Positions 3,541 through 40,255 of a DNA stretch of 64,000 nt are shown here, in pieces. The notes beneath the pieces are model-generated. The model made no database searches. It saw only the letters and a list, made by a program, of their open reading frames with translations, and had not been told where the DNA came from. The DNA is taken from positions 8,805,484 through 8,869,483 of the forward strand of contig NC_057753.1 of NCBI RefSeq assembly GCF_004010195.1, given 5' to 3'. The stretch comes from Chiloscyllium plagiosum. Lineage: Eukaryota. How positions within the stretch are numbered: the stretch's first letter is position 1; each line of letters opens with the position of its first letter. The position numbers and the translations under genes were made by a program.

Positions 3541-3861
3541 TGGTTGTAGTAGTTTGCAACATTCTCCAAATAGGAACAAATGCACAATAATAATTGCAAA
3601 TAATCCTTCTGACTAACTCAAACTGTCAATCCCACTTTTGTCATCAACATTCTGGACAAATCCTGACTAAGCAGTGGTAAGACAATTGGAAATCAACTGC
3701 AAACAAATTACCACACGGGCAAATATAGCCTTGCAACATTCCTCGTACATTTCTGAATTTAACACGAAGGCAATGTCTGACAAACCCCTCATGTATAGCT
3801 GCCTGTCAAGAAGAGGATGTGCTACCCTGAAGCATGCAAATGATTTTAGACTATCCCCTTA

Positions 3862-4761
3862 TCAATATTTAAACATTTTAATGAATAGGTTGAAAGGAAA
3901 TTTCCTTAATTCATTTCTAATTCTGCTCTGCGTTACAGCATATATAAATGGGGTGATACAGGAACTCAATAACTGGAGCATATATCCAGTTTGTTTCAAA
4001 TGAAATATGGAATTACGCCAAGTGGATCCTGAGGAATACATAATATTCGCAATTTGAATATAGAGAATACTTATGAAAAATAACAAAAAGAATAGAATGA
4101 AAGTGTCCGAGATTGAAGAGTAAATTAATGGAGTTTCTCCGCTTCTCCATCTCTGGGTCACGCTGAGTCTCTCCATTACTCTGAAGCTGGAGTCTCTTCT
4201 GGGCTCTATTGGCCATGAGAATGCATCTCACAGTCGGTGCATTTAGTAGTACAATTAGACTAATAGGGAGGCATGGATTTAAAACAGAGCAGATCCAGTC
4301 ATATGCAGTCCAAGCAGGTGACGTACAAAATATATCCATTATGCTACACAGCCATGGTGTATTGTTGATTACGTATCTAGGTTCAGATTGAAAATATATG
4401 AAAATGTTTTTCATACTGCACAGAGTAGATACTACTCCTATCATCCTCACTGCCACCTTCTTGGTGCAATATTTTGCTTTCAGGTTCTGACAAGATATTG
4501 CCACAAATCGATCAAAAGTAAAAACGAAAGTTAACCAGGCGGAATTGTCAATAACTTCCAGATTAAATGCAGCATGAAACCTGCACACTGATGTGGTAGA
4601 AAGGAAACTGGATGGGAAATAGCTTCCAGCAATCCGATTTAAAATCACATCTGTGACCATGACCAGGAGATCTGCTGCTGCCATTCCCACTAAGTAGTAC
4701 GTGATGCATCCAGATAAACAACAGGTTCTTCGATACAGGATTGCAATCACTGCTATATTAA
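3862..4761 (-). pseudogene. GPR139/GPR142-like class A GPCR, copy 1, exon 2 (one frameshift near 4113)
   Basis: Acceptor ttcttccag at 4762-4770, then VNIAVIAIL...YYLVGMAAADLLV...FTFDRFVAISC...KYCT...WICSVLNPCLP...DPEMEKRRNSINLLF. Frame then switches to ISDTFILF...MLQLLSSCITPFIYAVTQSRIRNEL (NPxxY-like), TGA at 3862-3864. Confidence 0.88.
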
Positions 4762-6048
4762 CTGGAAGAAAGAAAGAGAGTGAGTTACAAACGGACCATT
4801 TCTCCTTCTGATTACAATAAGGGTTTTTCCCATATTACAGGATTTTTTTGAGACGTTTCAAGATTTTAGAAGGAAATCACAATTTGGCCATCATTCCTTA
4901 TTTTGTAGAATAACTGATTTTTGAATTAAACATTGAAATGTGGAAACCAAATTAATGACTCAACAAGGAATAGTATTTAGACATCTTCGCAGTCAGCAAC
5001 AATCCACCCACCAACAGTTCACCACTTCATTTAGTTGGGACCTATTCCACGGCACGAATACATTTTAAAAATGCAGTTAATATATCTCAAGTATAAAAAA
5101 TACCGAGGTAAAGCAAATCATCTCAACAAAGAGAATATGTTGAAAGAGGTAATCCACAAAGCACAGGCGGTAAGGTGGAAACTGAAAATAACATGAATTT
5201 AGTCTAAATTTATTTCAATAAATTCATGTAATTCTTTTCACTGTTGGAAAAGCAGACATTCATCTTTCGAATATTACATTGGAAATAAACTGAAAACATG
5301 CAACGCTCCAAATTCACAGAGTCCGTGCTGGGGTTGATTCGATGACACGACCTGTTCATGTTAGAATGACCTCTCATTTATGGTGTCATTGGAAAGCATT
5401 GAAACTGACTGGTAATGAGAATGTGTTCAGGGAAAGACATTCCTACAGTGTAGCACTTCATCAGTCATTCATTGCATAGACTGGGTAAATAATGGCGCTT
5501 TTCTGATTTGCATTTTTAAAATTAAACCTTGGCAAATGCAATTCAATAGATGACAATAGGTGTAGAGATTCACTCAGTTTCAGGAGAGCAACAAATCTAG
5601 AAACAGTCTAGGCTATTGTGGAATGTTGGTATCAGATGGAAATTCCACGTCAGCTATCATCACATTAGAACAATCAGAAACAGTTAATGTGGAATGAGCT
5701 TGCAGCTCTGAAAGTGCAAGCGCTAGTGATTGAAAACAAAAACAAATTCGCTCTGTGCATTAGTGGGAAATTCCCATCTTAGTTTAAGATATTGTTATAT
5801 ATCTTTGAACATTTCGACAACTAATTATTCCCCTTCGTTAAAATCAGTCATTAAATGCAGATGGAAATTGCTCAGCAGTTCAAACTACTGAAGCAATAAT
5901 GCATAATGCGCATTTCCCCTTTCCTTCAAAGAAAATTGCACGATCAATCCAGATGTATCACGGGATTATGGTGGAAATAATCTTCGCAAAGAAAGAATAA
6001 AATGTGATGATATTCAGAAAATTGTCTCAATAATGCCACGATGGATCT

Positions 6049-6262
6049 ATTATTTTCTTTTTTTCTTTTTGAATTCCACAGAGATTGGTATCCCATCACC
6101 AAGTTCCCCTTTATTTAAATATGGAGAGTCACTGACACTGGTCCAGCTTCATCAGAGCCAGCTCTCAGAGTGAACAGAACCTCTGATACTCCTTTTTTTA
6201 ATTATATTTTTCCTCAGACTACCGCCTAACTGCGGTAGTGCTTATTTTTCCCTCAGCAACCG
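6049..6262 (-). mobile_element. Composite retroposed insert: LINE-like 3' end with stem-loop and A-tract, then an LTR fragment and a second A-rich tail
   Basis: Direct repeat cgatggatct at 6039-6048 and 6263-6272; T-rich tracts at 6051-6070 and 6193-6211; stem-loop actaccgc/gcggtagt at 6218-6239; LTR-like piece with minus-strand AATAAA at 6071-6192. Confidence 0.6.
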
Positions 6263-6564
6263 CGATGGATCTCCTATTCCAGACTAATAACTGCTGAGTA
6301 ATTGACCAAGTATCATGCTGCCAATACTGCAGCTGAATTGAATTGACGTTGTGACTCATTTCTCTACTAATGCCTTTATCACACTAGAAGTGTACCACGA
6401 TATGTATCCACCTTCACGGAGCACATCACAATGTTGAAGCCAAATGCTCCATCCTATTGAATAGGAGAAACAATATTTATTGCTACTGGGGTTGTGCTAC
6501 TGTAAACCTGGAGAACTGACGCAGTTAAACAGTAACTCTACGTTTTGAACTCTCAACATTTTAC

Positions 6565-6694
6565 CTGGAAGACAAATAGCTGCAAGGAGCGGATAATAAA
6601 TGGCAAAGATCAAACCTCTTGGTATCTCATGCTTTTCTGACAGATGCTCTGAGCACTTTCTATGAATAATGGAAACATGACTACAGTTATACAT
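6565..6694 (-). pseudogene. GPR139-like copy 1, exon 1 (N-terminus/TM1)
   Basis: KHEIPRGLIFAIYYPLLAAICLP followed by phase-1 donor CCAG|GTAA at 6564; joins exon 2 in frame (P-V-N). The expected start codon appears as AAG; an upstream in-frame ATG is at 6694. Confidence 0.8.
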
Positions 6695-7714
6695 GGTTAC
6701 ATATGCATTTCAAACTCCAGGGGGGGTTAGTTAGTTAGATTTGCTTTTTCCATCATGACTTTCATCGCGATAAGCAGATTAGTGCTGTTTCTGATTATTG
6801 CACTTTTAATTGGAATGGATATTCAATTCAGGGGGCCTGAAATTGATCGAAAGTGACATGCACAGCGATCACATGATAATAAAGGTATTATTTCGTCATT
6901 TAAAAAATCATTGCTATATGAATATTGGCTTCAGAACAAAGCAGCAGCTTTCTCTGGAAATTTTAACGAGATAAGTGAATATTTCAACGAAAGTACAGCC
7001 AAGTTCTACCATTATTATATTCTTTCGATCATGATTCAGGTGCAACATGAATCTAGTCAATACCGATGCAGTAAAGTATCAGTCTTTACGGATGCACTTA
7101 CAAATGTTTACGATGTCTCCACCTTGACTGGTTTCGTGGCGTTTTGATGCAATTTCACCGCAATTTAATTTCGTACAGGGAGATTCAGTTTCAATACTGT
7201 GTGTCTTCACCAATGTGTTGACATGTGGTTCATCAAGGTTAAATTCTGAACTGACTGTTCCAGTCCATCAACATGAAAATCCATGTGGATTTTAAGAGAT
7301 CAGCACAGTTATATTTATTTAGGACACTCGATGAGTAAATCTATATTCCGACTTTATATGAACACTTTCTGTTCAACATACTCACGTGAAGTGTGATTTG
7401 CTACAAGTCAGCCATGTTCCATTCAGTTTTAACACATCGATTACAATGTAATTGCATTGGTCAGAGACCGGGTCAGTGTTCCACCGATATTTTACGTTGA
7501 CAAGATTCGAAGCAGCATTTTTGATTTCAGCTTTCTAAGTCCAGCTCAATACGAATGGTATGAAAATGTACAGGTGAACATTTGTGAGGCTTTAAGGTGC
7601 ATCATAACAGATGGATGAGTAGGAAGGAAACAACGGATATGGAAGACATGAAGGCTTAAATTACAACATGAAGGCTGTCTTCCCGTCATCAAGTGACTGT
7701 TAGTTTACATGCAC

Positions 7715-10020
7715 ATTGTATATGACAATTAAACAGCTATTTTAGAGCTAGTTCCTCGATTGAACAGGAGCCCTTCTGCTGCTTATTTGTCAGTTGAGGC
7801 TCTCAGAACGGACCAGTTTAACAGCCCCATTCAGTTAATTCCTATCCTATGTCCTTGCCACCTCGTTCCAATCACTGCATGCATTTCCTCTCGAAATCCT
7901 GAGACGTAGGGCCTTTCTGTGCCCTTGAACCCCTCTTGGTGCATTTTTGCACCAGGTCTGGTTCCTCCGATTCTGCCTCGGATGTTGACAGTGTGAACTA
8001 GACTGTAGCGGGACACTTAAACCCGGAATGACTCTGAACAGAGCCAACTCCTTCAGGCAGTAACGGCGTTGAGTCTGTAACATCTGTGTGTTCATCTCTT
8101 CCTCAGACGTTTCTGCAGTACTGCGCAGAGAAGGAGAACCCATAGATTCTGACAGCCTTGTTGGACTATGTGAAGGATTTCGTATGTTTGGCCCTTTCCC
8201 GATTTAGGAGTTTGCAGTCTGCATGTGATCCATATGCATTTTCAGAACTGTCTCTCCTATCTCTCTTGGGACTGTTTGGTATCAAATGAGGCTGCAGGTT
8301 GTTTCTTTAAGCATCCCTTCAAAGTTGGGACTGCTCTGTCCACCAGACCATTGGACAGTGGATGGCATGGAAATGTCTTTCGAATTCACGAAATACTTGA
8401 ATGCCCTACTGGTAAACGATGGCCAATGGCTGTGACAGTGCTTCTGAGTACTGCAAAAAATTGCTTGCAGATTTTCAAATGTCATCCATGTGTTTGAGGA
8501 CTGAACTCTCCACAATTCTGAACATTTTGAATGGACATCCACAATGACGAAGCACATAGACTTCATGAACAGACCTGCAGAAATGACGTGTACGCGAGTC
8601 CAGGGCTTACTGAAAATTCTCACGCTTGTCTGGGAGGTGCTGTTAGCAAATTTTGTTCTTGTTGACAATTTAGGCACTGCCCCACTAATGTAGATATTTC
8701 TGCATCCAATCCTATCCACCAGACATATCTTCATCCAATATCCTCATTTTAGAAACTCAGTATCTGGTAGTGAATTTTGCTCAAGACAATCACTCTTGTG
8801 GCAGCATCACCAGTGGTTGTGTGCCCGCCAATGTGGCTCAATTCATTTGCATATGCCGGTAGCCTCCTGCATGGTGTTCCAATCTGTGATCCTACCACCG
8901 CAGATTTAGAGCCTACGGCACAATTCGACCTGACACTCTCGGAAACAAGGCCCTGCCCTATCTGGGTACCCTTAGCAGGAGCAGTGTTGCCTTACTATTG
9001 CAAAATCTACATCCATAAAGGTATTTCTGGAACTTTCTCGACACAACGATAACTGGTAAACCTTCTTCCTGGATCTGGGTGTTTTTTTCATTTGGCATAA
9101 ACATATGCAATCGGGCTTTTCTCTTCTCTAGGCCACTAGTGAGCTAACACAACCCTGATACTGTAAGAGGAGACGACGCATGTCAGCACTTCAACTCACT
9201 TGGAATGTACAGTGCCGACGCTAGCTGCTTCTTCACTTCCCTAAACGCTGCGTTCGGGATTTGAAACAATTTCCAAAGCTGATATTTGTCAATCACAACT
9301 GTTAAGTTGTCAGAATAGAGGCCAATTTATACTTTTTTTCTGTAATAATTCACTAATTCAAGGAAAGACCACAACTTCTCGAGACGTGGAAGTCAGGGCA
9401 CAATGATTGCCTTGACTTTATCTTCCACGGTTGTATCCTGTTTCTGATGGTTCTGTAGCCCAAATAAGTCACATGGGTGCATAGAACATTTTTTCCATCG
9501 AAGGCATACACCTTCCTCAGAGAAACGTTTAAACATTTTGTCCAAGTTCTCTAAATGATCATTATTAGTTTTTCCAGATGTTAGCATGTCATCCAGATAA
9601 ATGGCGACCTTGCAAAATGTTCTCCATTGTCCGCTGGAAGGTGACACAGGCTGATGATGTCCAGAAAGGGAGTCTCGGTTAATGGCACAAATCCTCATGT
9701 GTATTAATTTTCGTCTGGGAATCCTTATCTCAGCACAACTGCGGTCTGCATGGCTCATGTCCATCTTCGTGAAGGACTCCCCACCAATACTATTTGATAT
9801 ATTTTCATTGTGCAAAGGATGGGTATTTAACCAACTGCAAAAAATAGTTTACCATTTGTTTGATTTCCCCACAAATGTTAACCGAGCCATGAGACGTGAA
9901 AATTAGTGTAACCAGTGATGTCTATTCTGCAACCTGTAATGGTTTTATGTTTCCTTCACTTTCCAGCCATCTCATGTATGTGTCTCCTTTTGAATTTAAG
10001 GCAAATGACACTGAGTGGGT
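7715..10020 (-). mobile_element. Gypsy/Ty3 LTR retrotransposon remnant (RT, RNase H, integrase, degraded 3' LTR)
   Basis: FCKVAIYLDDMLTSG (YxDD) in the 9393-9815 ORF; integrase KPWTRVHVISAGLF...VIVDVHSK at 8282-8734; LTR-like segment about 7715-7880. Confidence 0.85.
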
Positions 10021-10034
10021 CTGACAAATTTACA

Positions 10035-10932
10035 AAAGAGAACACAGAACAGTAAAACACAGTTTAGACTCTTTAGTCCTCGACGTTGGGCCGACCTTTT
10101 ATCCTACACTAACATCCAATGAACCCTTCATTTTGCTATCATGTATGTGCCGATCTGAGAGCCGTTTAAATGCATTTGACTCAACTATCACTGCTGGCAG
10201 TGCCATCTACGCACCCACTACTCTTTATGCGGAGAACCTATCTCTGACATCTCTCTAATCCTTCCTCTAATCACATTAAAATTATATCCTTTCAAATTAG
10301 CCATTTCTGCTCTGGGGAAAAAAAGCTCCCTTTTAACGCACTCCATTTCTGCCTCTCAGAATACGTACACCTCTCCAAGCCACCTCTCATGCTTTTTCGC
10401 TCTAATGAGAAAAGCCCTAGTTCACTCAACCTTTCATTATAATACATGCTTTCCAGTCCAAGTCGTAATCTGGCGATTTACCTTTGCACACTATGTTAAG
10501 CCTGCACATTCTTCCTATAATGAGGCGACCAGAACAGAACTCAATATTCCAATTGTGATATAACCAGGACTTTATAGAGCTGCAGCATATCCTCACGGCT
10601 TGAAATTCTAACCCCCTGTTAATGAAAGTGAACACACTATATGCCATCTTCGCAACCCTATGAAACTGTGTTTGAGAGATCTATGGATATAGATCCCAAG
10701 ATCCCTCTGTTCCTCCACAGTGCCAAAAATTGTGCCTTTAACTCTGCAATATGCACTCAATTTCGACCTTCTAAAAATAAATCACTCCACACTTTTCCAA
10801 GTTGAACTCCATCTGCCACTTATCAGCCCAACTCTGTATCCTGTCAAAGTCCCGTTGCAACTTACAACAGCCCTCCACACTACCCACAATTCCACCAACT
10901 TTCGTGTCATCAGCAAACTTTCTAAACCCATC
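10035..10932 (-). mobile_element. CR1 LINE 3' portion
   Basis: Minus strand AYSVFTFINRGLEF; CR1 3' UTR and tail near 10040. Confidence 0.85.
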
Positions 10933-11199
10933 AGTATGCTAGGTGGCCTTTTTTCTTTGATAGACCTTTGACCTTTATGAAAAACGTATTTAGTTAGAAC
11001 TTCATGTTCTTTTTCCGAATTGAAAAACGTTGAGGAAATGAAGTTAAGTCTCTCTCATATAATGTTGTCACATCAAGCCTTTTACTGGTGGTAACTGGGT
11101 TGCAGATGTGGTAACTGAACCAACTGCTTCTCATAAGAAACCAGCAGCCAAGTTGCATCCTTAATCTGAAAACTTGCCGGTATAAATCATTGGTCCAGC

Positions 11200-12105
11200 C
11201 AAGATATTCCACAAATGTACGGGTTGGAATCCAAAGCAAATATGGATGTAGATTTGCTCGCTGAGCTGGAAGGTTCGTTTTCAGACGTTTCGTCACCAGA
11301 CTAAGTAACATCTTCAGTGAGCCTCCGAATGAAGCATTGGCGGTGTAGCCCTCTTTCTACTTAAATGTTTTTGAGTTTCTTTGAGTTGGTTATGTCATTT
11401 CCTGTGGTGGCATCATTTCCGATGGCGATGTCATTTTGTATTCTTTTTCTCAGGCGTGGTAAATGGGATCCAAGTCAAAATGTTTGTTGATAGAGTTTGA
11501 GTTGGAATGCCATGCTTCCAGAAATTCTCGTGTATGTTTCTGTTTGGCTTGTCCTAGGATGGATGTGTTGTCCCAGTTGAAGAGTGTCCTTTCTCATCTG
11601 TATGTAAGGATGCTAGTGAGCGTGGGTCATGTCGTTTTGTGGCTAGTTGATGTTCATGTGTCCTGTGGCTAGTCTTCTGCCTGTTTGTCCAATGTAGTGC
11701 TTGTTACCGTCCTTGCAAGGTATTTTGTGGATGCCATTAGTTTTGCTTGTTGTCTGTTTTGGGTCTTTCTAGTTCATTCGCTCCTGTTTTAGTGTGTGTT
11801 TGTGGGTTTGTGGGCTACCATGATGCCAAGGAGTCTGAGTAGTCTGGCAGTCATTTCCGAGATGCTTTGATGTAGGGAAGAGCGTCTCGGGTTTCTAGAA
11901 GTGTTTTGTCTGCTTACTTGAGTTGTTCAGAAATCAGCGGACTGTGTTCATTGGGTACCGGTTCTTTTTTAATACACTGTATACGTGATTTTCCTCTGCT
12001 CTGCGTAACTTCTCTGCGCTTCATTGTGTGATGGCTCGTTGAAATAATTTTCTGATGCAGCTTCATTTGTGGATGCCGGGAATGATTGTTTGTGCAGTTC
12101 ATAAT
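11200..12105 (-). mobile_element. Penelope-like element, second family (GIY-YIG plus pLTR with hammerhead)
   Basis: Minus strand KIPCKDGNKHYIGQTGR...HEHQLATKRHD at about 11630-11730; terminal repeat with hammerhead at 11281-11320. Confidence 0.88.
11281..11320 (-). ncRNA. Minimal hammerhead ribozyme motif
   Basis: Minus strand TCA-CTGAAGA-T-GTTAC(loop)GTGAC-GAAA-C-GTC-TGA: stem I tca/tga, 5-bp stem II, GUC cleavage triplet. Confidence 0.75.
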
Positions 12106-12109
12106 TTGA

Positions 12110-12938
12110 TCCGTATGCTTTGGCATCAGGCATACCTGAAAATGAGGTATCAACCTGGTGAAGCTACCAAACAGGACTACTTGCATGTAAAACGGCATAA
12201 ACCACAAGTGATAGCCAGAGCTAAGCAATCCCATAAACAACCGATCAGGTCTTAGATCTGCATTCCTTTCACATCCATTCGTGAATAGTGGTGGACAATT
12301 AAGTAAGTCATGGAGGAGGAGGAGGCTTCACAAATATCCCCAACCTAAGTCATGCATGAGACCAGCACATCAGTACAAAACATAAGGCTGATGCATTCCC
12401 AACAATCTTCAGTTAGAAGTGCCCAGTGGATGATCCATTGCAGGCTTCAACCAGTGGTCCCAAGCATCACAGGTATCAGTTTCCATCAATTTGATTCACT
12501 CTACGTGATAACAAGAAACGGCTACAGGCACTGGATACTGCAAAGATATTGGGCCCTGATAACATTCTGGCAATATTATTGAAGACATGCTCTCCAAACC
12601 CTGCTGCTTCCCGAGTGAATCTCTTCCAGTACAGTAACAACACTGGCATGTACCCGACAATGTGGAAAATTGCCCAGCTATGTCTTGTCCACGAAAAGCA
12701 GGAGAAATCTGTTCCAGCCAATTACCGCCCAACCAATCAGCCTACTCTCCACCATTCGTAAATTGATGGAAGTGCTCATCAACATTGTTATCAAGCAGTA
12801 CTGCTCAGCAACAACCTGCTCAGTGATGTCCACTTTGGATTTCGCCAGGGTCACTTAGTTCCTGATCTCATTACAGCCTTGCTTCAATCATGACTGAGTA
12901 TCGTATCCAGGAACCCTGACAAAACTGGAATCAATGGG
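12110..12938 (+). mobile_element. Non-LTR retrotransposon RT fragment (CR1/L2-group, distinct family)
   Basis: GPDNILAILLKTC...LFQYSNNTGMYPTMWKIAQLCLVHEKQEKSVPANYRP / PISLLSTIRKLME. Confidence 0.85.
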
Positions 12939-13759
12939 TATCCTAACATAAGCCAACTTATGAAGGGCTCTCTGAAGGGCTCAGAGAAATGCACGATGTG
13001 CATTTAAGAAATGCACGATGTGCCAAATAGTAATCATGCTTGATATCAAAAATGATATCTGCAAACCAGATCATTGAAGGGTAAATAGCATAGCAATAAG
13101 CAAATGGTGAAGAATGAAAAAGTACGTGACAACAGTCTGTCTTGCAAGAAGATGACCTTGCAGTGAGAGCAGACTGTTTTGCAACAACGCATGGAATTGT
13201 TTTTGATTAGCAAGCACGAAGTAATGGCTAGACTTTGATTAGACTTCATCTTCGATTTGGATTTGTGACTGCTGCCATGAGCTGCATCGCCGCCATAATG
13301 GGGCCCCAACTAATGAAGGGACATGAGACTTACTTGTTTGAATATACGTAATATCTTTAAGTGAAGCACTTTGTAAAGATAATGGGTAATGCTGATCAAG
13401 CAATTGAAGTCAGTATATTTGCATAACACCAGACGACACTTGCCTTCTTGTATTCATTTTGATCAAATACTCTTCAATGTCGAACAAATACATTTGGTGC
13501 TGTGGGCAGGGTTGAAGGAAAACCTTCAAGAAAAAGACAAATGTTTGATTTGAGGAAGTATTCCGTATCCCAATATGATTTGGGGATTTTAATGAACTAG
13601 TTGAATGAGGTAGAGCAATGCAATTTTGGGATAAGGATTTGGAGCTTATTCCCAAATAACTATGCGCAGATGTAAATGTCTGTCAGGAGGAAGCGAACGA
13701 AAAGCAGACCAAAAGTGTCGCCCAAATGCCGTGCATTTTGTTGACCAGCGTCTATGGTG

Positions 13760-16700
13760 AGAATCGAACTGAAGTCCCCAGGGTGGTCTACACCTGAACC
13801 AGAGGGGTACCAGTATCCGGGAGGGGTGGAGGACGAATTTGCTAATGCTCTTTAGGAGGGTGTGTAAACTAATTCAGCTAGTTGATGGGAACCTAAATTG
13901 TAGTTCCAGTGTCCAGGAGATTGAGTTTTGAGGTCAGAAATGAGTATTCAAGATCTCAAGAGTTCACCGACAAGGAGGAAGGTGATTTGAAGTATATCTA
14001 CTTCAATTCCAGGAGCATCCGGAATAAGGTGGTTGAGCATGCAGCATGGGTTGATATCTGAGACTTCGATGTTGTAGCTATTTTGGAGACATGGATAGAG
14101 CAAGGGCAGAATTGGTTATTGCAGGTTCTGGAATTTTGATGTTTCAGTATGAACAGAGAAGCTGATAGAAAAGCGGTGAGGTGTGGCATTGTTAGTCAAG
14201 GACAGTATTACGGTAGCAGAAAGGACGTTTTAGGACTTGTCTACTGAGGTAGTACGGCTGAGGTGAGAAACAGGAAAGAAGAGGTAACCGTGTTGGGAGT
14301 TTGCTACAGGCCTCTGAATAGTCCCAGAGATGGAGAAGAAAGTATAGCCAACATGATCCTCGATAGGAGGGCTAGTAACAGGTGGACTTTAACTTTCCAA
14401 ATATTGATTTGAAAAGCTATAGTTCCAATAATTCAATGGGTCAGTTTTTGTCCAATGTGCCTCACAAACCTTATTGAGTTCTTTGAGATGGTGACCAATC
14501 AGGTGGATGAGGGTAAAGCAGTTGATGTAGTGTGTATGGATTTCAGTAAGGCGTTTCCTTGATTGGCTCTAATCTTCCTCTAGTTATTTTTTATTGCTGA
14601 TATTCCTGGAGAAAACATTCAGGTTTTCATTGATCCGATCTGCCAATGACTTTTCGTGTCCTCTCCTGGCTCTTCTTAGCTATCTCTTCAGGTCATTCTT
14701 GGCTAACTTGTAATTCTCAAGCGCCCGAACTGAGCCTTCACTTCTTATCCTAACATAAGCCAACGTCTCCCTCTTGAGAAGAGATTCAACTTATTTTGTA
14801 AACCATGGCTCCCTCTCTCGACCACTTCCTCCCTGCCTGGCAGGTGCATTCTTATCAAGGACACGCAGTATCTGTTCCTTGAATAAGCTCCACATTCAAT
14901 TGTATCCATCCACTGCAGTTTCCTGTCCCATCCTATACATTGTAAATCTTGCCTAATTGCATCATAATTGCCTTTACCCCAGCAATAACTCCTGCCCTGC
15001 GTTATAGACCTTTCCATTTCCATCACGAAAGTAAAAATGACCGAATTGTGATTACTATCAATAAAGTGCTCACCTACCTCCAAAACTAACATCTGGCCAG
15101 GTTCGTTACTCAGTACCAAACCAAATGTGGCCTCGGCTCTTGTTGGCTTGTCTATATCCTGTGTCATGAAATCATTCTGCACACATTGGAAATTTGTGCA
15201 TGCAGTCTGAGGAGTTAGGGGAAACGCTGAATGAATATTCTTCCTCAGTATTCACAGTGGAAAAAGACATTGTGGTCGAGCAGAATATTGAGATATAAGC
15301 TACTAGACGAAGCGGGACTGAGTTTCATAAAGAGGAGGTGTTAGCAATTCTGGAAAGTATGAAAATAGTTAAGTCCCCTGGGTCAGATGGGAGTTATCCT
15401 AAAATTCTCTGAGATGCCAGGAAGGAGATTGCAGAGCATTTGGCTATGATTTTTATGTCGTCATTGCCGACACGAGTAGTGCCAGAAGACTGGAGGATAG
15501 CAAGTGTTGCCCCCTTGTTCAAGAAGGGGGAGTAAAGACAACCCTGGTAATTATAGACAAGTGAGCCTTAATTTGGTTGTGGGTAAAGTGTTGGAAAAGG
15601 TTAGAAGAGATAGGATTTATATTCATCTAGACAGAAGTACGTTATTAAGAATAGCCAGCACGGTTTTGGGAAGTGTAGGCTGTGCCTCACAAACTGTATT
15701 GAGTTCTTTGAGATGGTGACCAAACTGGTGGAAGAGAGTAAAGCCGTTTATGTGGTGTATATGGATTCCAGTAAGGTGTTTGATAATGTTCCCTACAGTA
15801 GGCTTTTGCACAAAATATGGAGGCATGGAATTAAGGGTGATTGAATGGTTTGGATCGGATATTGGCTAGCTGAAAGAAATTGATGGTTCATAGGAAATGT
15901 TCATCGTGCATTTCAGTTTCTAGTGGCATACCGCAAGGGGCTAGATTAGAGTAGCGCTAGAAAAGCCCAGCAGTTCAGGCTGCATCCGAGGATCAGTGAC
16001 ATTGACATTTCGGGCAAAGGCCCTTCATCAGGAATACCGCAAGGACCTATTTTGGGTCAACTGTTGTTTGTCATTTTCATAAATGGCCGTAAATAAGGAT
16101 GTAGAAGGATGCGGTCATAAATTTGTGGATAACACTAAGGTCGGTGGAGTTGTGTATAGCTGAAGAATGTTGCAGGTTGAGAGCGAAATAAATAAGTTGC
16201 AGAGCTGGGCTGAGAAGTGGCAAGTGGAATTTAATGTGGAAAAGTGTGAGGTGATTCACTTTGGAAGGAGCAAAAGAATAAAGACAGTTGGGCTAATGGG
16301 AAGATTCTTGGTTGTGTGGATGAGCAGAGAGATCTTGGTGTCCATGTACATAGATCCCTGAAAGTTGCCACCCAGATTGATAGCATTGTTAGGAAGGTAT
16401 ACAGTGTGTTAGCTTTTATTAGTGGAGAGATTGAGTTTAGGAACCATGAGGTGATGTTGCAGCTGTACAAATCTCTGGTGTGGCCGCACGTGGAGTATTG
16501 CGTCCCGTTCTGGTCAACGCATTATAGGAAGAATGAGGAAGCTTTGGATAGGGTTCAGAGGAGATATACTCAGATGTTTTGCCTGGTATAGAGGGAATGT
16601 CATGTGAGAAAAGGCTGAGCGACTTCCGGCTGTTTTCATTAGAGAGAAGAAGGTTCAGAGGTGACTTAATTGAGGCATATAAGATAATCAGAGGTTAGAT

Positions 16701-17012
16701 TGGGTGGAGAGTGGGAGCCGTTTTCCGAGGATGGTCATGGCTAGTACGAGATATCATAGCTTTAAAATGAGGGCAATAGAGAGAGGACAGAAGTCTGAGA
16801 TAGTTCCTTTATTCAGAGAGTAGTCGAGGAGTGGAACGCATTGGCTGCAACAGTAGTAGAGACGATAATCTTAACGGCATTTAAATAGTCATTGCATAAA
16901 CGTATGGATGAAAAAGGAATAGTGTGCATAGGCTTCGGGTGGTTCCACAGGTCGGCGCAACATCCAGGGCTGAAGATCCCATAATGAGCTGTAATGTTCT
17001 ATGTTACATGTT
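13760..17012 (+). mobile_element. CR1 LINE (ORF1 end, APE endonuclease, RT, 3' tail) with internal inversion at 14557-15192
   Basis: HLNQRG-like ORF1 end; YFNSRSIRNK endonuclease start near 13995; 14557-15192 reads as CR1 ORF2 on the minus strand; RT resumes on plus at 15193; tail near 17000. Confidence 0.88.
15939..16033 (-). mobile_element. Short Penelope pLTR/hammerhead insertion with TSD
   Basis: 11-bp TSD ataccgcaagg (15928-15938 / 16034-16044); minus strand CTGATGA-A-GGGCCTTTGCCC-GAAATGTC. Confidence 0.8.
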
Positions 17013-17129
17013 CTCTTACCTGGGTGTCTGGATTAACAGGTTGTCGCCTCCACTTATGACACTACCTCCCTAAGTTATCAATGTATGAGTATATCATTAT
17101 CTTTGAGGAGCTCTTGAAGTCACTTACGA

Positions 17130-17445
17130 GATGAGGCTGTTACTGGCTTGGCCACCACTTATTGCTCATCCAAAATTTTACAGAAGTCATTGAAGAGCCA
17201 CATGCAGACCAGACCAGTTGAGGAGAGCTGTTTCTTTTTCTGAAGTGAACAAGACAGAGGTTTTCTTTGGACAATCGACAATGGATTCATTGTCGTCAGA
17301 CTCTTAATTCCAAACAAAAAGTTGAATTTAAATTACACATCCTGCCGTAGATTTTGAGCATTATTTCGAACCCAGGTCCCCAGAGCATTACCTGGGTCGC
17401 TGGATTAATATGCTAACGCCATACCATTAGGCAATCGCCTTCCCT
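17130..17445 (-). mobile_element. tRNA-derived SINE
   Basis: Minus-strand head ggcgattgcctaatggta...ctggggacctgggttcgaa (A/B-box-like); partial duplicate of the head at about 17015-17062. Confidence 0.55.
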
Positions 17446-17493
17446 TATGACACTGTGATTCGGAAAATGGAAAATGTAAATGAATGTAAATTA

Positions 17494-17825
17494 AATCCAC
17501 TGTGTTCCACCCCACCCCCCCCCTCCCCCCAGCCCGCATCATCCATAACAATGGCAGGACAATGTGATACAACCTTCTACAAACAGGGAAGCCACGCAGA
17601 GCCTTGTTCTTTCTGACAGTATGCTGTCTCAGAGGACCGTGTGAATGTATTCACATAAATTTCACAAGTGAATGACCACAACTATGTGTGAACGCACAGC
17701 GGGTCACAGATCTTCCTTTTCCTCTTCCCATGTGGAATCCGCTGGGTTCCAACCCCCCCTCCACCCCCCCCACCCCCCACATCATCCATAACAATGGCAG
17801 GACAATGTGATACAACCTTCTACAA
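17494..17825. repeat. About 90-bp direct repeats with C-tract flanking a 155-bp spacer
   Basis: catcatccataacaatggcaggacaatgtgatacaaccttctacaa is identical at 17537-17582 and 17780-17825; each copy is preceded by aatcc.ctg.gttcca and poly-C. Confidence 0.85.
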
Positions 17826-18806
17826 CATAGAAACTATAGCCTTCTTTCACCAGCCGCGTCATTGCTTGGCCCCACAGCCCTGCCACATGCTCCCACTCTG
17901 CAAGACTGCTCAAACGTTGCACAACGTTAGAAGGCGACGATTGTGTCGATAGTGTTGATTATTGACATATTTTACTCGGCTAAACTGATGATTGATTCTG
18001 CAGGATATTGGTTAACTATTTAAGTTAAATCGAAATGCAGGTTCCACTGTATGTGAAATTAAATATAGAAGGTTTAAATATATCACTATGCTATTTAATG
18101 ACCGATTTAAGGAAAATAATAATCATCAAATGTGAAATAGTATTTCAGGACTGCATTTGCGTATGGAATGCTAATTTTCACATCTCTAAACATCGATTTC
18201 ATTTCGATTCAATGACCAAATTGTGACACTGAGAAGCATGGAAGTAGGGTGTAATTACATCGACATCATAATTATCCATTTCTCTTTACCAAGTGTCCGT
18301 GTTGATCAAGTAATATGGTGTATTATTATTCCAAATCAAACATCAATGACCAGTTCCAGTAAAGATTGCCTGACCATAGCGCTTAAATTTGGAACTCACT
18401 ATTGTAGAACGTGGTGAATGAAGAGCTGTTCAGGTGACTGAAAGGTCAGATGGAGGCAGTGGGACTGAGGAAACACCAATGGAGTGAAAGCTGCTGCAGT
18501 GTTACATTTTCAGCCAGTTTAACCTCGAACGCATAAATATTCATGTGCACAGTGAGCGACAGTGACAAATGTGACTTTGCTGAAGGCAACAGAAAGGCTG
18601 CAACTCCCAAATAATTCGAACTTGGTGGCGGTTAGGATTTTATTTTGGCCTTGAAGGTAGCAGAAGTAGAATTTCTAGCCAATTAGATAGCCCTGCAAGG
18701 AGGAAAAAGGCATAGCTGAGCAATCGTTTGGTGTCACCTGCCTGCATATCCGAATGAGGATAAGTAGCTAATGTGTCTGCAGTGGACAGTTCACCATTTT
18801 AAAGTA

Positions 18807-19720
18807 TCAACACTTTAAAAGTTTAAGAAGCAATCTGTGTGGATATTTCAACCCATTTGTTCACTCGTTTCTGAATTTATTCTGGGTCCCCGCATAAATA
18901 AATTAATTTATCCAGGAACCCAAAAACTGAAGCACATACCCGGTTTCCTCCAGGATGAAGGATTAATTGCTATTGTCTGAAACCCAGTAATAAGTAACTT
19001 TTGCAATTCCGACGTAGAGCACTGTTACAAAAAAAATACCGAATAAAGCAGAACAGAACTACCTGAAATGCCAAAGAGTAAGACAATAGATATTTTCATT
19101 TTTCCCCATCTCTGGGTCACTAGGATTGTGTCCATTGCTCAGGGTACGGAGTCTCCTGCGGGCTCGATTGGCCGCTAAAGTATGCCTGACAGTTAGAGCA
19201 TTGAGCAGTAAAATCAGAATGAATGGGAGGCAGGGGACGAGAATGGATCGAATCTAATCGTATGTGGCCCATGCCTGTGTGGTGCTAAATGCCAATTTTG
19301 GAACACAGAACCATGGAACGTCGTTAAATATGTACAATGGTCCAAATGTAAAATACAAAAACGTTTTTTTAAAGCAGCTCAGCGTGCAGACGCCCACTAT
19401 CACCCACTTCGCTGTGACTTTTGTACTGTATTTTAGTTTCAGCCTCTGGCAACAAATGGCCACAAATCGATCAAAGGTGAAAGCAACCGTTAATCAGGCA
19501 GAACAATCTATAACTGAAGAAATAAGGACAATGTGGAGACTGCATATTGGTGTGACGAAGAAGAAGCTGAATGGAAAATAAATGCCAGCAGTCCGGTTTA
19601 TAATCACATTAACTATGATGACCAAGACATCTACTCGCGTCATGGATAGCACGTAGTAAATGATGCATCCAGAGAGACCACATCTTCTTCGCTGTAAAAT
19701 TACGATCACCGCCACATTTG
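18807..19720 (-). pseudogene. GPR139-like GPCR copy 2, exon 2 (multiple stops, frameshift, dead acceptor)
   Basis: NVAVIVILQRRRCGLSGCIIYYVL...DCSA*LTVAFTFDRFVAICCQRLKLKYST...WATYD*IRSILVPCLPFILILLLNALTVRHTLAANRARRRLR...DPEM...ETGYVLQFL...IN*FIYAGTQNKFRNE*. Acceptor reads ttacAA instead of AG at 19721-19722. Confidence 0.88.
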
Positions 19721-21065
19721 TTGTAACAGAGAGAATGAATTTGGACCATTGAGAATTATGCCTGAGAGCGCGAGAGCAATGAAGTCGTTAGTCCATATTC
19801 GATGAAATTACGCTTTCTCCAGAATTGTTTGTGAATTGTTTGTGCATGGTCAGCTTTTCCATTGGGAAGTATGCTTCATACCAAGTTCAAGACTTTTCAT
19901 TAAGCTTGGAGCAATCATCTTAATTGAAACCAAGTTATGCCAGTAACAAAATGATGTTGAAAACCCTTTAAAATGTGCACTGAAAATGATTGGATGATAG
20001 AATGTAAGCATTGAGTGGAGTCTGTCCACAGAATTCATTGCATATTGCTCACTTTAAAAGAAAATGTTCAAAGGTATGAACTTCTGCAAAGCAGTTCTCT
20101 GTTGAAACTACTGCAGATAACATCAACAAAAACATCGAGAGGCATACGGAGTGGGATGAAATTCAGATTTCTTCGGCTTTGCACAGAAAACATTGATTAA
20201 GATGTAACAGTATTTCTCATTTATTTAGTAGGAAATGTCAATGCTAACTCGAACCACTGGCCCTTTGCAGAGTTCTCATTTGGAGACTATCTCCGACAAC
20301 ACTAAAGCCCTCAATGCTGTAGTTTACTGTAAGGAGAAATTAACACTTCTGTGCAGATTCTACCTTTGCGATACTCAGTCACAAGAGTCTTCACAATAGC
20401 ACAATAGGACGGCACTTATATTGAGATGATATTGGTAAAGGTACAAGTTCCATAATTATAGTTATCTGATGAAGATTGATATAAAACAAATGTTGCCACG
20501 TGAGGAACAAGATCCTGTATGTAAATACATTTCACGCAGCTATGGCGAGGAGCTGGAATACATCATTACATGGAGGCAATATTCAAAACCGAATTGAATA
20601 CTGTGCAGTTTACGGGGAGAAGTTGTGAGAACAGCAATAAGCGAATTGTTTATCTGTAGACTGGACAAACACAAGCCTGATCAAATACCCTTCTTCACCA
20701 TTGAGCTATTTCTGAAATCCGTAAAGAGAATGTACAGCACAGTTATTAAGAAAACGTGCAAGTTATTGTGGAAACATATCGTAAAGAAACTCAACGAAGA
20801 AGGAGGATGAATTTTATTTTCAAAAGTGAGAACGTAGACGATCAGCAATGACCAGGTCACCAAGGAAATGAATTATTCCATTAACTCGGAGAATATTCTT
20901 ATGGGCAGATTTTGGAAATGTGACCTACCCATTAAAAGAAAGCAGAGTTCTTTAAATTGGGGATGAAATATCCACAATGTGAAAATGGGCGATTAGTGAT
21001 AAACAAAGAGCTTTGATTCAACAAATCTACGAATCGTGTAATAATAACCGAGTACAAATCTTTAC

Positions 21066-21146
21066 CTGGTGACCCGATAGCTGCAAGCAAATTATAGTAA
21101 ATTGAAAACAAAAGACCTTCTGGTATATGTGCATTTCTAGCAGACA
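21066..21146 (-). pseudogene. GPR139-like copy 2, exon 1
   Basis: MSARNAHIPEGLLFSIYYNLLAAIGSP with donor CCAG|GTAA at 21065; homologous to copy 1 exon 1. Confidence 0.8.
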
Positions 21147-21414
21147 TTTTAAGCACATTCAGCGTTATGCTGTATTTTTCCACATTTATACATGTGTCAG
21201 GCTGAAGGGATTAGATGGTTGAAACTTTTACAGTCATCAGCATAGTTATAAAAAAAGATAAATACAGTTGCAGTTGGGCATGTTTTGATGGATTGGAACT
21301 CGAATTAGAAATGCCCAGGGACTGCAAAACTCTTCAACTGCGTTTCTTTTTCAATATTCATGGCCCGAGTTTTCATCTATTCCATCTATTAAAACCATAT
21401 ACATTTCTTATTGT

Positions 21415-21600
21415 CTCAGAGAGACAGCCAACATCATCAAAGAGCCCTCCCACACCATTTATAATTCTTCCAACCTCTTCCATCAGACAGACGATGCAAA
21501 AGATATCGACATGTTCAAGAAAAGCTTCTTCGCTGCTGTTATTAGATTTCTGAATGGACCTCTCAAATTTGAAATCAAATGTTAATCTTTGATTATCCTT
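21415..21600 (+). mobile_element. Rex1/Babar-like LINE 3' fragment
   Basis: cagccaacatcatcaaag...cttccatcagacag...ttcaagaaaagcttcttc...tctgaatggacc resembles Rex-type 3' ends (recognition only). Confidence 0.5.
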
Positions 21601-21984
21601 GCACCTTCACATTGTCCATGCCATCGTTTCCAGATCATATGGTCCAGCAATCTCTTCTGTTGTGCGTCTTGAAGCATCATTCATCATGATCTTAGTGGAT
21701 GGATGAGTAGGTTCCAAGGATTGGATGGTGGACTCCTACTTCGTTTTGATATTTTCATGTAAATGCTTGTATTAAAGGTATTTACAACTTCACAGGTGCA
21801 AGCACAGCCATGACATACTTTAATGAGTTTTTTGACTAAAGAAGTGTAACTTTGATCTCGGTCTTGCAATGTACCCCAAAATGGGTCTTTGTGAAACAGC
21901 TGCTCAAGTTTAAGAAGCGAATCAGGTTCTAAACAGGGTAAGAGATTGAGCTAAAGTTCGTTAAAGAGGAGCGAAAGAACTATT

Positions 21985-22510
21985 AATTAATTTATTATCA
22001 CATGTATCTTGTTGCAAAATACAGTGAAAAGTATTGAAATGTCGCTACTGTCTGGCGCTAACTCAAAACACTGAAAATGAACCATAACTTCGAATATAAA
22101 GGCAGAACACAGAAGAAATAAAAAAGTGTCCAACTTTATCGTCCTTTTTGTTAAGTGCTCCATCATGTGCAGTCGGCCTGGTAGCGAGACATGTGCTCCC
22201 TTCGTCATACCACTGCTGCTGGAACAAAAATCACTTCTCCATGTGCCGTCTCACCCGCACTGACGTCATCTTGGTTACACACTTGATTGGTTCCGAGAAA
22301 GCAACGGAGAAGCAAAGCAACGTGGAGAATCCAGAAGCAATTCATTTAGTCAGAAAATCATGAATAGAACCCAGCTGGTCCGGCTTTTATAGTTCTAGAG
22401 CTCGTTCCAGTCCGGCCTCCTATGAGACGTTATGTTCTGCCTATGGAGCAAGTCGGATTTGAACTCTGGTCAAAACTGCTTAGCCGTAGAGACACTACCA
22501 TTGCATCACA
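21985..22510 (-). mobile_element. Possible tRNA-headed SINE with Rex-type tail
   Basis: Minus-strand head tgcaatggtagtg...gagttcaaatcc at 22445-22510; tail ttttcactgta...tgtgataataaa at 21985-22035. Continuity between head and tail is not proven. Confidence 0.35.
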
Positions 22511-22779
22511 AACACTTTACTGCATATGAATGACCCTGTGGGTTAATTGAAATGCACATGGAGTAAGTGATTATGACTAATTGAAGTGGGAATCTACTTC
22601 AAGCAGGATATACTATCGTACATTACGCATCATTAATTCATTCAGTGTGTTATTTTACAGAATGAATAAGACAATGTATGAGTCAGTGGGAAGTAATGTA
22701 CGCCATCAACAAAGAAACAAAGAATTTGTTATAAGGCACAATATATATAAAATACACACATACATATTCTTAATGAAGT

Positions 22780-23667
22780 AAATCTTAATGAAGTAATTAA
22801 ACCAAGTAATTATTTTCCCCGCTTTTCAATTAAAAAAAAAATTACTCTGTGCCCATCTGTAAACAGATGAGCTGATGGAATAACTCATTGGTGAAGGCAT
22901 TTTCATGCAAAATAAATAACAAAGTATAGAAATTGGAATCCAAGAAATAAGTAACATTTGCAATTCAGACTTATTTTATTTAAGAAAAAGCGCTGAATGG
23001 AATAGGATGAAGTGTCTGACATGGTAAAGAGTCAAACAATGGAACATCTGCATTTCCAAACCTTTGGATTCCCCTTATGCTGCATTGTTCTGGGCCCAAT
23101 TTCTACTGTGGTCTTTATTGACCCTTAGAAGATGACTGACCATCAGCTTATTGAACAGTCAAATCAAAATAAATAGCAGAGAATGTATTTATGTTATGAG
23201 AATCCAGTTATATACAGCTCAAAGTTGTAACTAATAGCATATTGATTTCCTTTGGTAAAACCAGGGTATAATGTCATTCATAAAGAAGACTTGTCCAAAA
23301 TACTAGTGAACGTTTACAACACAATTCAGTACATAAGCAGTTTGTATTGTCACAGCTATGGTTTTCTTGGTATCATGCTTCGTCTTCATTTTCTGGAAGC
23401 ATATAGCTACTGAGCAGTCAACGATGAAAGCCGCTACTGTCAGAGAGAACAATCTGTAATTACATCTATCAGAACAAAAGCCAAACTAGAAATTGAACGA
23501 AGGGATAGAAAACTGAATGGAAGATAAACACGTAGAATTAATTTTACTATCACAGCTGTGAACGTGCTCACGAGATCTGTCGCCTCCATGGAGACCAAAT
23601 AGATCGCCATACATCTGGAGATGCCTCACATTCCCTGGGCCAGGATCATAAGCACTGCCAAATTAGC
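22780..23667 (-). pseudogene. GPR139-like GPCR copy 3, exon 2 (heavily decayed)
   Basis: ANLAVLMILAQGM*GISRCMAIYLVSMEATDLV..., remnants AFIVDCSVAICFQKMKTK, and TM5-TM6 remnants at 22950-23200; many stops and indels. Confidence 0.75.
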
Positions 23668-23835
23668 CATTTTAAGGTTAGTGAGATTGGCCATGGGAAA
23701 TGCAAGGTCACAGGGACAGTGTATGGAAGGGGGAGGGGGTCAGAGGGTGAGTCTGCGTGGAATGCTCATAAGGTTTGGTGTGGACTGAAGAGGCCTCATG
23801 CCCTGCTTCCATACTGTTGGGAATCTATGCTTCTA
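23668..23835 (+). mobile_element. HE1-type (V-SINE) 3' fragment abutting the copy 3 exon 2 start
   Basis: ggttagtgagattggccatgggaaatgcaagg...ggtgtggact...tgcttccatactgttgggaatctatg, similar to the SINEs at 40645 and 63215. Confidence 0.7.
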
Positions 23836-25458
23836 GACAAATATATGAAGTTGTAAGTGTTTAAGAGCGATTAATGAACAACATGAAAAGCTATGAATCG
23901 TCACATTACTCACTAATCGCGCTCAACCTGTTTTGTTCAATTTATTTTAATTCTGGTACAGAAATATATCTCTGAGAATACAGCAGTATCCGGTACTGTA
24001 AAGAGCTGCCAGGAAATTTCGGGGCTTTTATACAGTTTGGTGACTTAGTTAGAGAACATAAAATTTATAATAGCCATATTCAACATGGAAAAATTAATGG
24101 TCACAAGAACAGCCTGAGAGACTCTCGAATGTAAGAAGCAGAGGTTGAAACAGAGGTAGCAGATGATATTTCACGCAGATCAGACAAAATGCTTCATGTC
24201 TGAGAACAATATAGGAAACGGTCACTTGCATAAATGGAAAGAAATTGGTCTGTATGGAATTCCCGAGAGGCATAACTCCAGCGAATCATTTGATGCTATT
24301 GTAAAGTGGTAATGGCAACGAATGAAACAAATCATCTATGTAGTGTTTCCCTGTTTGAAATGGTGGTTAGTTCTCCCACATCGGAGTGAAAACATTGTCG
24401 TGTCAAGCGCTATTCTAGGACAGGAGTACCATGGAAATGCTTGAGGTGTATCTTTTCAGATAGTTTGCTAAACTGAAGCAAAATTGAAACACAATGCGTG
24501 TATAGAATCTCTACCAATTTAATGGAGAGCTGTTGTTCATATTTCAGCACAATGAACAACATGCACATGGTTCAGAAATTAAGCAATACAACAATTAGCA
24601 CCTTGAGGAAATGGAGATTCATTTGGTATGTGATGGTTTACTCAACAAATAGCATCAATACACAGTACAGCGATGTTCATATCATGACAGGGAATGATAA
24701 TACTCCCATAGTAAGATCACCCATAAAAGCAAGCAACTTAATTTACAGCATGCCACCGCATAGTCAATACCTGTTATTGTGACAACACAAATAATGAACA
24801 AGAAACGTTTATTGTGCCGCAGTGCCGTGTCTCTCACAGTGGCACACTACAAATAACTGTGGCAGTGTCCATAGCTCTGAGCAGGCTGCTTCAGATTCAC
24901 AGTCCTCAATGCTCCAGTCGTTTGTAATCATATCTCTGAACAGATTGAATCGTTAAAAGAACGTGGAACAAAAGTTTCGCATGACTTTGTATGAAAATAT
25001 ATGTGCGCATCAATAACAGTCAGAATTACATTTAAAGTATGAGACGTTAACAAGCCGTGGAAAAATACCAAATGCAGAGAGGACGTCGTTCTAGTGTTTG
25101 CATGTTCGCCTGTCGAAAGGAGAATGATATATATCTTGAATGCTAAGAAACCATTTGTCTTAAGACATTTTAATACCACTATGTGAAACATGAAATAGTA
25201 AAAGGTAATGACGGTTCATTACGTTCGTGAAGAATAACTATGATTAAATTGAGAGTTGAAATGAATAGTTGGTAAAAATGTCGATTTTAGGGGTGAGGGC
25301 ATATCATACGTGCTCATGGTTTTCTTAAAAGTGTTTGACGGAGTAAATAGACAAGTGATCTACTTAAATGCTGAAATGACATCACTACCATGGAGAAGAA
25401 AATGACAAAACGAGAGGTATGCAAATCCTTCCATAACTAGCAACTGTTAGCACAACTA

Positions 25459-25522
25459 ACGGATTGTTGCAAGAACGGGATAATAAATTGCAAGCACTAA
25501 ATCTTCTGGTGATGACTGAAAT
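25459..25522 (-). pseudogene. GPR139-like copy 3, exon 1 remnant
   Basis: QSSPEDLVLAIYYPVLATIR* matches the AIYYPLLAAI motif; no start codon or donor visible. Confidence 0.65.
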
Positions 25523-39600: not shown

Positions 39601-40255
39601 GTGCAACCAGTCCTGCTTGTACAGATCCCACCTTCCCCAGAATGCAGTCCAATTATCCAAATACCTGAAGCCCTCCCTCCTACACCATCCTTGCAGCCAC
39701 GTGTTCAACTGCACTCTCTCCCTATTCCTTGCCTCACTGTGACGTGGCACTGGCAACAACCCAGAGATGACGACTCTGTCCGTCCTAGCTTTTAGCTTCC
39801 AGCCTAACTCCCCGAGCTCCTGAATGACCTCCCCACCCCTCTTCCTTCCTATGTCGTTGGTGCCAACGTGCACCACGACTTCTGGCTGCACACCCTCCCC
39901 CTTAAGGATTCTGAAGACACGGTCTGAGACGTCTCGGACCCTGGCACCCAGGAGGCAACAAACCATCCGAGAGTCTCGCCCATGTCCACTGAACCGCCTG
40001 TCCGTCCCTCTAACTATAGAGTCTCCTATAAGTAGCGCTCTCCTCCTCTCCCCTTTCCCTTCTGAGCCGCAGAACCGGACCTCGTGCCAGAGACCCGGTC
40101 ACTGCCTCTTAACCCTTCTCGGCCTTCCCCCCCAACAGTATCCAAAGCAGTATACTTATTGTTGAGGGGAACAACCACAGGGGATCCCTGCACTGCCTGC
40201 TTCCTCCCTTTCCCACCTCTAACTGTTGCCCAGCTACCTCTGTTCTCTGGCTTAC
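36608..40255 (-). mobile_element. Young CR1 LINE: SGNH-esterase ORF1 (5'-truncated) and APE-endonuclease/RT ORF2, a few frameshifts, 3' end missing
   Basis: ORF1 VVVHVGTNDIG...VISGLLP...DWLHLN; ORF2 CVYFNARSIRNK, VAITET, GDFNFP, GDHNSV, KSPGPDG, QHGF, VVYMDFSKAFDKVPH, SGVPQGSVL, KFADDTK. Breaks near 39200, 38360, 38161, 37655 and 36740. Confidence 0.96.

Follow-up and report, generated by a model that had tools for sequence, protein, structure and literature searches.

Three class A receptor pseudogenes of Chiloscyllium plagiosum point to a large, apparently undescribed receptor family of cartilaginous fishes

Three broken receptor copies on the minus strand

Motif scans and six-frame reading of a 64-kb stretch of Chiloscyllium plagiosum DNA (contig NC_057753.1, hereafter the window, whose own positions are used throughout) located three two-exon copies of a G-protein coupled receptor (GPCR) belonging to class A at 3862-25522 on the minus strand, transcribed in the order copy 3, copy 2, copy 1. 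All three are pseudogenes, and their sequences indicate that they once belonged, as working genes, to one class A GPCR family and form part of a tandem cluster in which they have died. The window itself holds pseudogenes only, and the interest lies in the family they point to, which apparently represents a large and so far undescribed set of orphan GPCRs with diversified ligands in cartilaginous fishes.

Exon 1 of copy 1 (6565..6634) consisted of 23 codons and one base, encoding a short N-terminus and the first half of transmembrane helix 1 (TM1), and its start codon was AAG; in whale-shark P0001, its closest intact relative, Met stands at this place. It was separated by a phase-1 intron of 1803 nt with intact GT..AG ends (4762..6564) from exon 2 (3862..4761), which ran from TM1b to helix 8 and matched Pfam 7tm_1 with an E value of 4e-14. 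Exon 2 contained a frameshift at 4114 in TM6, two bases short relative to P0001, as well as the substitution N7.49T and a gap of three codons in helix 8. Six of the 49 family-conserved columns were changed in copy 1 and none of the 49 in P0001. In copy 2, exon 1 (21066..21147) retained its donor, while the ATG homologous to the start of the relatives (21134) was out of frame by one base and an in-frame ATG lay further upstream at 21147. Its exon 2 (18807..19720) was preceded by AA instead of AG at the acceptor (19722-19721). Five in-frame stops (19496, 19256, 18965, 18905, and 18863) interrupted this exon, and its reading frame shifted twice, at about 19095 and 19042. Copy 3 comprised an exon-1 remnant (25452..25522, or about 25512-25462; tblastn E 5e-4 within the window) with neither start codon nor donor, and an exon-2 relic (22866..23667) with many stops and frameshifts and no AG acceptor, whose best relatives share about 40% identity with it. 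Copies 1 and 2 were 54% identical in protein and 66% in DNA. The exon-2 pieces scored 384 bits (copy 1), 340 bits (copy 2), and 65 and 61 bits (copy 3) under the family profile described below, and the best scores in three shuffled windows were 3, 9, and 4 bits, so the matches cannot be ascribed to chance. No fourth exon 2 was found by the profile in the 64 kb. The sequence-only reading of this DNA had described three diverged same-strand paralogs with a short exon 1 and a phase-1 intron, copy 2 with many stops and a dead acceptor and copy 3 as a relic, all of which was borne out; the single frameshift it gave to copy 1 was found too, but the decay of that copy also includes the AAG start, the helix-8 gap, and the changed conserved columns.

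Contigs of other sequencing runs were aligned to 3300-6900 at 80% likeness. At the start codon of copy 1, one contig of run X3 (depth 2) had the letter of the window, and ATG was present in 15 other X3 contigs, in all X5 contigs, and in all contigs of X14, a second species. An X5 contig of depth 18.5 carried the letters of the window at every listed position in 4059-4114, with no gap among the rows listed. The other-run contigs thus gave partial support to the breaks of copy 1. The changed conserved residues and a long end branch in the trees indicate the decay independently, and an assembly artefact as its cause was rejected on all of these grounds. A roughly 87%-identical duplicate of the copy 1 segment was seen in the contig alignment to span the intron and the 3' flank, which implied that copies arise as DNA segments; retrocopies were rejected for this reason and because introns are present. 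In each of the three contig runs, summed contig depth was far higher at TM3 than in the bins of the intron, which is not a copy number but only a sign of many related copies. Reads of the single-cell RNA run X18 (tissue unstated, about 2 in 100 reads sampled, aligned at 80% likeness) covered copy 1 at a depth of 0.2-1.6 as a few partial reads confined to 4389-4630, and none of the sampled reads lay on exon 1 or formed a splice joint. These reads were not taken as expression because most were opposite in orientation to the poly(A)-tailed minus-strand reads found elsewhere in the window. Within the copy 1 intron, a high-copy repeat end at 6083-6324 (minus strand) drew single-cell reads with poly(A) tails, all of one strand, whose probable source is other copies of the repeat.

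The rest of the window was rich in decayed elements. Frameshifted C2H2 zinc-finger arrays were present at 60200-62400 (plus strand) and 41500-42650 (minus strand), and zinc-finger remnants adjoined the receptor cluster. A fairly complete long interspersed nuclear element (LINE), which we take to be of CR1/L2 type, occupied 36725-40200 (minus strand) and contained endonuclease-like and ORF1-like frames as well as part of a reverse transcriptase (Pfam RVT_1); older relatives lay at about 500-1650, 10350-10950, 14000-16750, and 32400-33200. Broken open reading frames at 49183-50709 (plus strand), two pieces of which had no Pfam match, presumably resemble a hAT/SPIN-type (GTF2IRD2-like) transposase. 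A 76%-identical element pair with a GIY-YIG-like frame (2235-3268, plus strand, and 47915-48969, minus strand) is presumably of Penelope type, and decayed open frames at 8280-9850 (minus strand) are assumed to resemble long-terminal-repeat retrotransposon polymerase and integrase. A 143-base stretch at 45652-45794 matched its reverse complement with 89% identity.

Extent and origin of the family

The protein of copy 1 exon 2 retrieved 581 candidates, 509 of them at E<=0.001, and the taxonomy of these matches rests on the best 120 of the 509. All 120 came from sharks, skates, and rays, and for most of them the name in RefSeq was “probable G-protein coupled receptor 139”; the best was a whale-shark protein with 77% identity. 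Horn shark accounted for 64 of the 120, with 48 on the same 59.5-Mb contig, and 12 of the 15 listed whale-shark matches, among them the counterparts with which copies 1 and 2 pair, lay on one 11.7-Mb contig. A family profile built from 54 members found 137 representatives (50% identity clusters) at E<=1e-30, at least 67 family clusters were present in horn shark, and 18 of 19 deep-branching representatives that were looked up belonged to cartilaginous fish, one of them a chimaera. The relatives matched Pfam 7tm_1 with E values of 1e-17 to 1e-21 and showed the seven helices and the N1.50, D2.50, DR3.50, P5.50, and Y7.53 residues of class A, while the copies in the window are themselves broken; the AlphaFold model of P0001 was a plain class A bundle (pLDDT 77.5). 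A Pfam scan of four family members gave 7tm_1 only, in 4/4 at E<=0.01, and no OR, V1R, V2R, or T2R model. TAARs also fall under 7tm_1, and no aminergic receptor was among the top 25 Protein Data Bank (PDB) hits of the family profile. Residue counts below refer to 177 family rows, 124 with a named source and 53 representatives, 34 of these assigned by tree placement alone, with positions numbered via anchor residues and a HMMER alignment to GPR139. The start differed from the canonical short exon 1 in 109 of the 177 models; many of the annotations may thus not be backed by transcripts, as would be expected of genes expressed in cells that are seldom sampled.

The nearest relative outside the sharks was a salamander protein (216.9 bits under the family profile). 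A search with it returned 25 hits, namely 20 amphibian clusters (one species each, from frogs, salamanders, and a caecilian), one sturgeon protein, and four elasmobranch proteins, with no amniote and no teleost among the 25. Trees were built from 223 of 315 proteins after 92 covering fewer than 265 profile positions had been dropped; FastTree took in every row, and IQ-TREE, run under a mixture model, took 50 rows. In both trees, the amphibian and sturgeon clade was sister to the cartilaginous-fish group with support of 99. This clade (P0216, P0284-P0303) represents a GPR139-like gene whose pocket hardly varies and which is present as one copy in frogs, salamanders, a caecilian, and sturgeon. 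It was 21-35% identical to the shark family and resembled it in a motif running from the third intracellular loop to TM6 and in the disulfide cysteines; it differed in having one gene per species, a frozen pocket, and W6.48, P6.50, K6.51, and N7x38 in 22 of 22 rows, whereas P6.50 was found in only 18 of the 177 family rows. Outside the shark and amphibian clade lay genes of coelacanth, teleosts, and a frog (P0223, P0235, P0257, P0255) and of amphioxus (P0252, P0261, P0312), GPR139-like lineages with Arg 6.51.

Within the cartilaginous-fish group, copy 1 clustered with the intact whale-shark P0001 and epaulette-shark P0002 (support 99) and copy 2 with whale-shark P0068 (support 100). The end branches of copies 1 and 2 (0.24-0.25) were four to five times longer than those of their partners (0.05-0.07). 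Since the two copies pair with different whale-shark genes, their duplication is older than those species and their death occurred in this lineage, and such pairing with separate intact genes indicates birth-and-death evolution. Together with the horn-shark clusters and the crowding on single contigs, the trees upheld the earlier proposal of a lineage-expanded, clustered, birth-and-death GPCR repertoire. The family thus goes back to one gene of the jawed-vertebrate ancestor, kept single in amphibians and sturgeon; in cartilaginous fishes, local duplications amplified it again and again, and the separate lineages each lost copies. This ancestral peptide-type orphan receptor appears to have been lost in amniotes.

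The RefSeq name does not reflect orthology. Human GPR139 was the best PDB hit of the family profile (62.8 bits, E 2e-16), below amphioxus (134.6 bits) and another outgroup protein (111.4 bits) as well as the amphibian sister gene. In Foldseek, the P0001 model aligned to GPR139 with 22% identity, and GPR139 took ranks 11 and 14, not separated from other peptide receptors. With GPR139 scoring below amphioxus and showing no structural preference, “probable GPR139” is best read as a best-hit label, and the family members are, on this comparison, not GPR139 orthologues. A PDB search with the single sequence of copy 1 exon 2 gave no match; canonical GPR139 and GPR142 appeared in none of three protein searches, were not recognised among 150 listed representatives, and are not part of the trees. 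GPR139 and GPR142 are like the family in having two exons, similar TM1 and TM3 motifs, and the best PDB match, and we take the intron position to be identical in GPR139 and the family. Published work gives GPR139 two coding exons and 70% human-zebrafish conservation (PMC7318219) and shows that it binds dynorphin (PMC12287315). GPR139 is thus conserved across vertebrates, whereas the family rows were 29-97% alike.

GPR210A/B are tentative names beside GPR139/142 in bony fishes (coelacanth, gar, teleosts), given in a paper that sampled no sharks and in which sharks and cartilaginous fish go unmentioned (Rinne et al. 2019, PMC6504862), and “Orphan 139-like” or “NMOGPR” appears in a table of PMC5207463; unlike the shark family, GPR210A/B and “Orphan 139-like” have few copies, and no function is given for them. 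The coelacanth, teleost, and frog proteins that branch just outside the shark and amphibian clade are probably the GPR210 group. The nematode srw and flatworm PROF1 receptors resemble the shark family as lineage-restricted expansions of orphan peptide-type rhodopsin receptors. Srw and Srx Pfam signals were seen on relatives, with Srw on 1 of the 120 listed matches and on none of the four members scanned, and srw and the shark family presumably share a deep ancestry. PROF1 is an orphan lineage expansion with pseudogene-like fragments and no known ligand, and it differs from the family in that its genes lack introns (PMC3261222). The shark expansion was not described in the literature searched, which excluded subscription papers, nor in term look-ups of the available text of shark genome and GPCR papers (including PMC10620051, PMC12208981, and the supplement of PMC11806052). 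The text of the Squalomix tandem-cluster survey names other clusters (bioRxiv 2025.06.08.657570), and its figures or supplements may show the family. Whale-shark paper supplements contained only a GPR142 orthogroup (70 proteins in 35 taxa), and a term search of the retina-atlas supplement found nothing on the family.

Conserved core and variable pockets

The signalling core was nearly fixed among the family rows, although these were as little as 29% identical: R3.50 and N5.58 were present in 100%, D3.49 in 99%, the cysteine of extracellular loop 2 (ECL2) in 98%, P5.50 and Y7.53 in 97%, and C3.25 and F6.44 in 96%. The ligand pocket behaved differently. Pocket sites were taken from a 30-site class A list, set before the test, plus 13 GPR139 contact sites. 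Among 67 horn-shark rows, they evolved at a rate of 1.60 vs 0.77 for other helix sites (permutation p 0.0002), and among 15 whale-shark rows at 1.24 vs 0.80, whereas in 22 amphibian rows they were slower (0.25 vs 0.66). The difference persisted in the outer helix halves without TM1 (horn shark 1.68 vs 0.94, p 0.0001; whale shark p 0.014; amphibians 0.25 vs 0.57, p 0.007, in the opposite direction). When the site set was slid by one to three residues, the pocket rate was 1.04-1.23, with the maximum at zero slide. Distinct 26-site pockets were found in 66 of 67 horn-shark rows compared with 8 of 22 amphibian rows.

These pockets were kept between species. At 80-90% background identity, 706 paralog pairs shared 60% of pocket residues vs 85% in 9 cross-species sister pairs, and across cross-species sister pairs the pocket was conserved at 82% vs 83% for the rest of the helices. 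The codon estimate between copies 1 and 2, both pseudogenes, gave a nonsynonymous rate (dN) of 0.35 and a synonymous rate (dS) of 1.25, a ratio of 0.28. Met stood directly before TM1 in 68 of the 177 rows, none of which had a glycosylation sequon; with almost no N-terminus, the ligand would have to meet the helices and loops. Variable pockets on a fixed signalling core, with pocket sites evolving at about twice the rate of other helix sites among shark paralogs and at 0.4 times that rate in the amphibian gene, form the pattern of a ligand-diversified receptor repertoire.

Possible roles and significance

By analogy, chemosensation of outside compounds is the most likely use of the family, a view that we hold with moderate confidence. 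Conservation shows that intact members keep the activation and G-protein core, possess almost no N-terminus, and each carry a transmembrane pocket of their own. Each intact paralog would then recognise its own ligand set, and the family would act as a detector array for outside peptides or small molecules, read by sparse sensory cells in nose, skin, gill, mouth, or gut; signalling may be of the Gq type, by analogy with GPR139. Chemosensation was ranked first because the pockets differ between paralogs and persist between species and because few shark receptors are known. Odorant receptors have pockets that vary between paralogs and are kept between species. OR, TAAR, ORA/V1R, V2R, T1R, and T2R, like the immune FPR and MRGPR, form clusters with birth-and-death as the family does, and differ from it in their separate ancestry, the relatives of the family being peptide-type receptors. 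For catshark, OR, ORA, and TAAR were each reported to number just 5-8 receptors (PMC6368271), which leaves room for another receptor family. More tentatively, and with clearly less confidence than in the use itself, cartilaginous fishes may have turned an ancient orphan receptor of the peptide type into a chemosensory receptor family of their own, with dozens to hundreds of genes.

Several points weigh against this chemosensory interpretation. A catshark top-50 list for “brain & olfactory epithelium” contains no GPCR (PMC11979771), although this says little about genes that few cells express. The nearest characterised relatives are brain and gut receptors for peptides or amino acids. Immune GPCR families yield the same genomic pattern. 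Monophyly of the cartilaginous-fish group had a support of just 86 in FastTree and 84 in IQ-TREE. In 5 of the 19 cross-species pairs, the pocket was 10 or more points below the background, and these pairs were chosen by eye from a tree that included the pocket columns. Fast pocket sites, finally, are no proof of positive selection, as the rates are at the protein level and not dN/dS.

An innate-immune repertoire on leukocytes or barrier cells, sensing microbial or damage-derived peptides like the mammalian FPR and MRGPR clusters, is the main rival, though a somewhat unlikely one. Clustering, pseudogenes, and variable pockets would be equally expected of it, and cartilaginous fishes are reported to have no MAS1/MRG-type family (PMC8455134), a role that another family could fill. 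The conservation of pockets in sister pairs, close to that of the other helices, looks less like an arms race fought gene by gene. Endogenous peptide or hormone receptors, neuroendocrine or reproductive, that diversified alongside a shark-specific ligand family would explain why the sequence and fold neighbours are the peptide receptors PrRPR, TRHR, NTSR1, and SSTR1, why atlas look-alikes include FMRFamide-receptor-like clusters, and why the nearly frozen pocket of the amphibian sister fits one endogenous ligand. We nevertheless regard this explanation as doubtful, since genomes with dozens of different pockets each, and genes that die often, would be atypical for fixed hormone-receptor pairs, and the basic residue at 6.51, present in 8 of 8 other outgroup rows, was retained in only 9 of the 177 family rows.

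The sequence-only reading had also suggested amino-acid sensors of the GPR139/142 kind, and this part was not supported. The Trp/Phe site of GPR139 is formed by F3x33, H5x43, W6x48, R6x51, and N7x38 (PMC5430874; PMC8807744). The combination of W6.48, R/K6.51, and N7x38 was present in all 22 amphibian rows and in none of the 177 family rows, in which N7x38 occurred 21 times, F3x33 in 22% (Tyr in 44%), and H5x43 in 30%. Asp 3.37 was found in 143 of the 177 and in none of 30 outside rows, and the C3.25-ECL2 cysteine pair is present in the family, whereas GPR139 lacks a cysteine at 3.25 in the alignment. Aromatic-amino-acid sensors like GPR139 and GPR142 would agree with the best solved-structure match, the shared two-exon structure, the aromatic residue at 3.33 in 66% of rows, and Tyr or Trp at 6.48 in 92%; with the residue triad not kept, the cysteine difference, the low structural-alignment identity, and a separate lineage whose sister lies in amphibians and sturgeon, they are highly improbable. 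Just as improbable is mostly functionless copy-number drift, in which duplicates would be carried along and then decay within unstable surroundings rich in repeats and zinc fingers, as the death of all three window copies among LINEs, transposon remnants, and broken C2H2 arrays might suggest, because the core stayed fixed in diverged rows, dN/dS was low even between two pseudogenes, the rate excess was confined to pocket sites, and copies 1 and 2 have intact whale-shark counterparts.

Published accounts credit cartilaginous fishes with few GPCRs and few odorant receptors (PMC8455134, PMC6368271), while a large, pocket-diversified receptor family has been present in their annotations under the misleading name “probable GPR139”. 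The largest V2R cluster reported for cartilaginous fishes has 65 genes (bioRxiv 2025.06.08.657570), and the horn-shark clusters of the family match it in size. Xenopus tropicalis and axolotl both have the one-copy amphibian sister gene, which offers a laboratory handle on the ancestral ligand. If the chemosensory interpretation is true, the family would be a further class of vertebrate chemoreceptors beside OR, TAAR, V1R, V2R, T1R, and T2R, would rival or exceed the V2Rs in number, and would help to explain the good chemical sensing of sharks despite their few known receptor genes.

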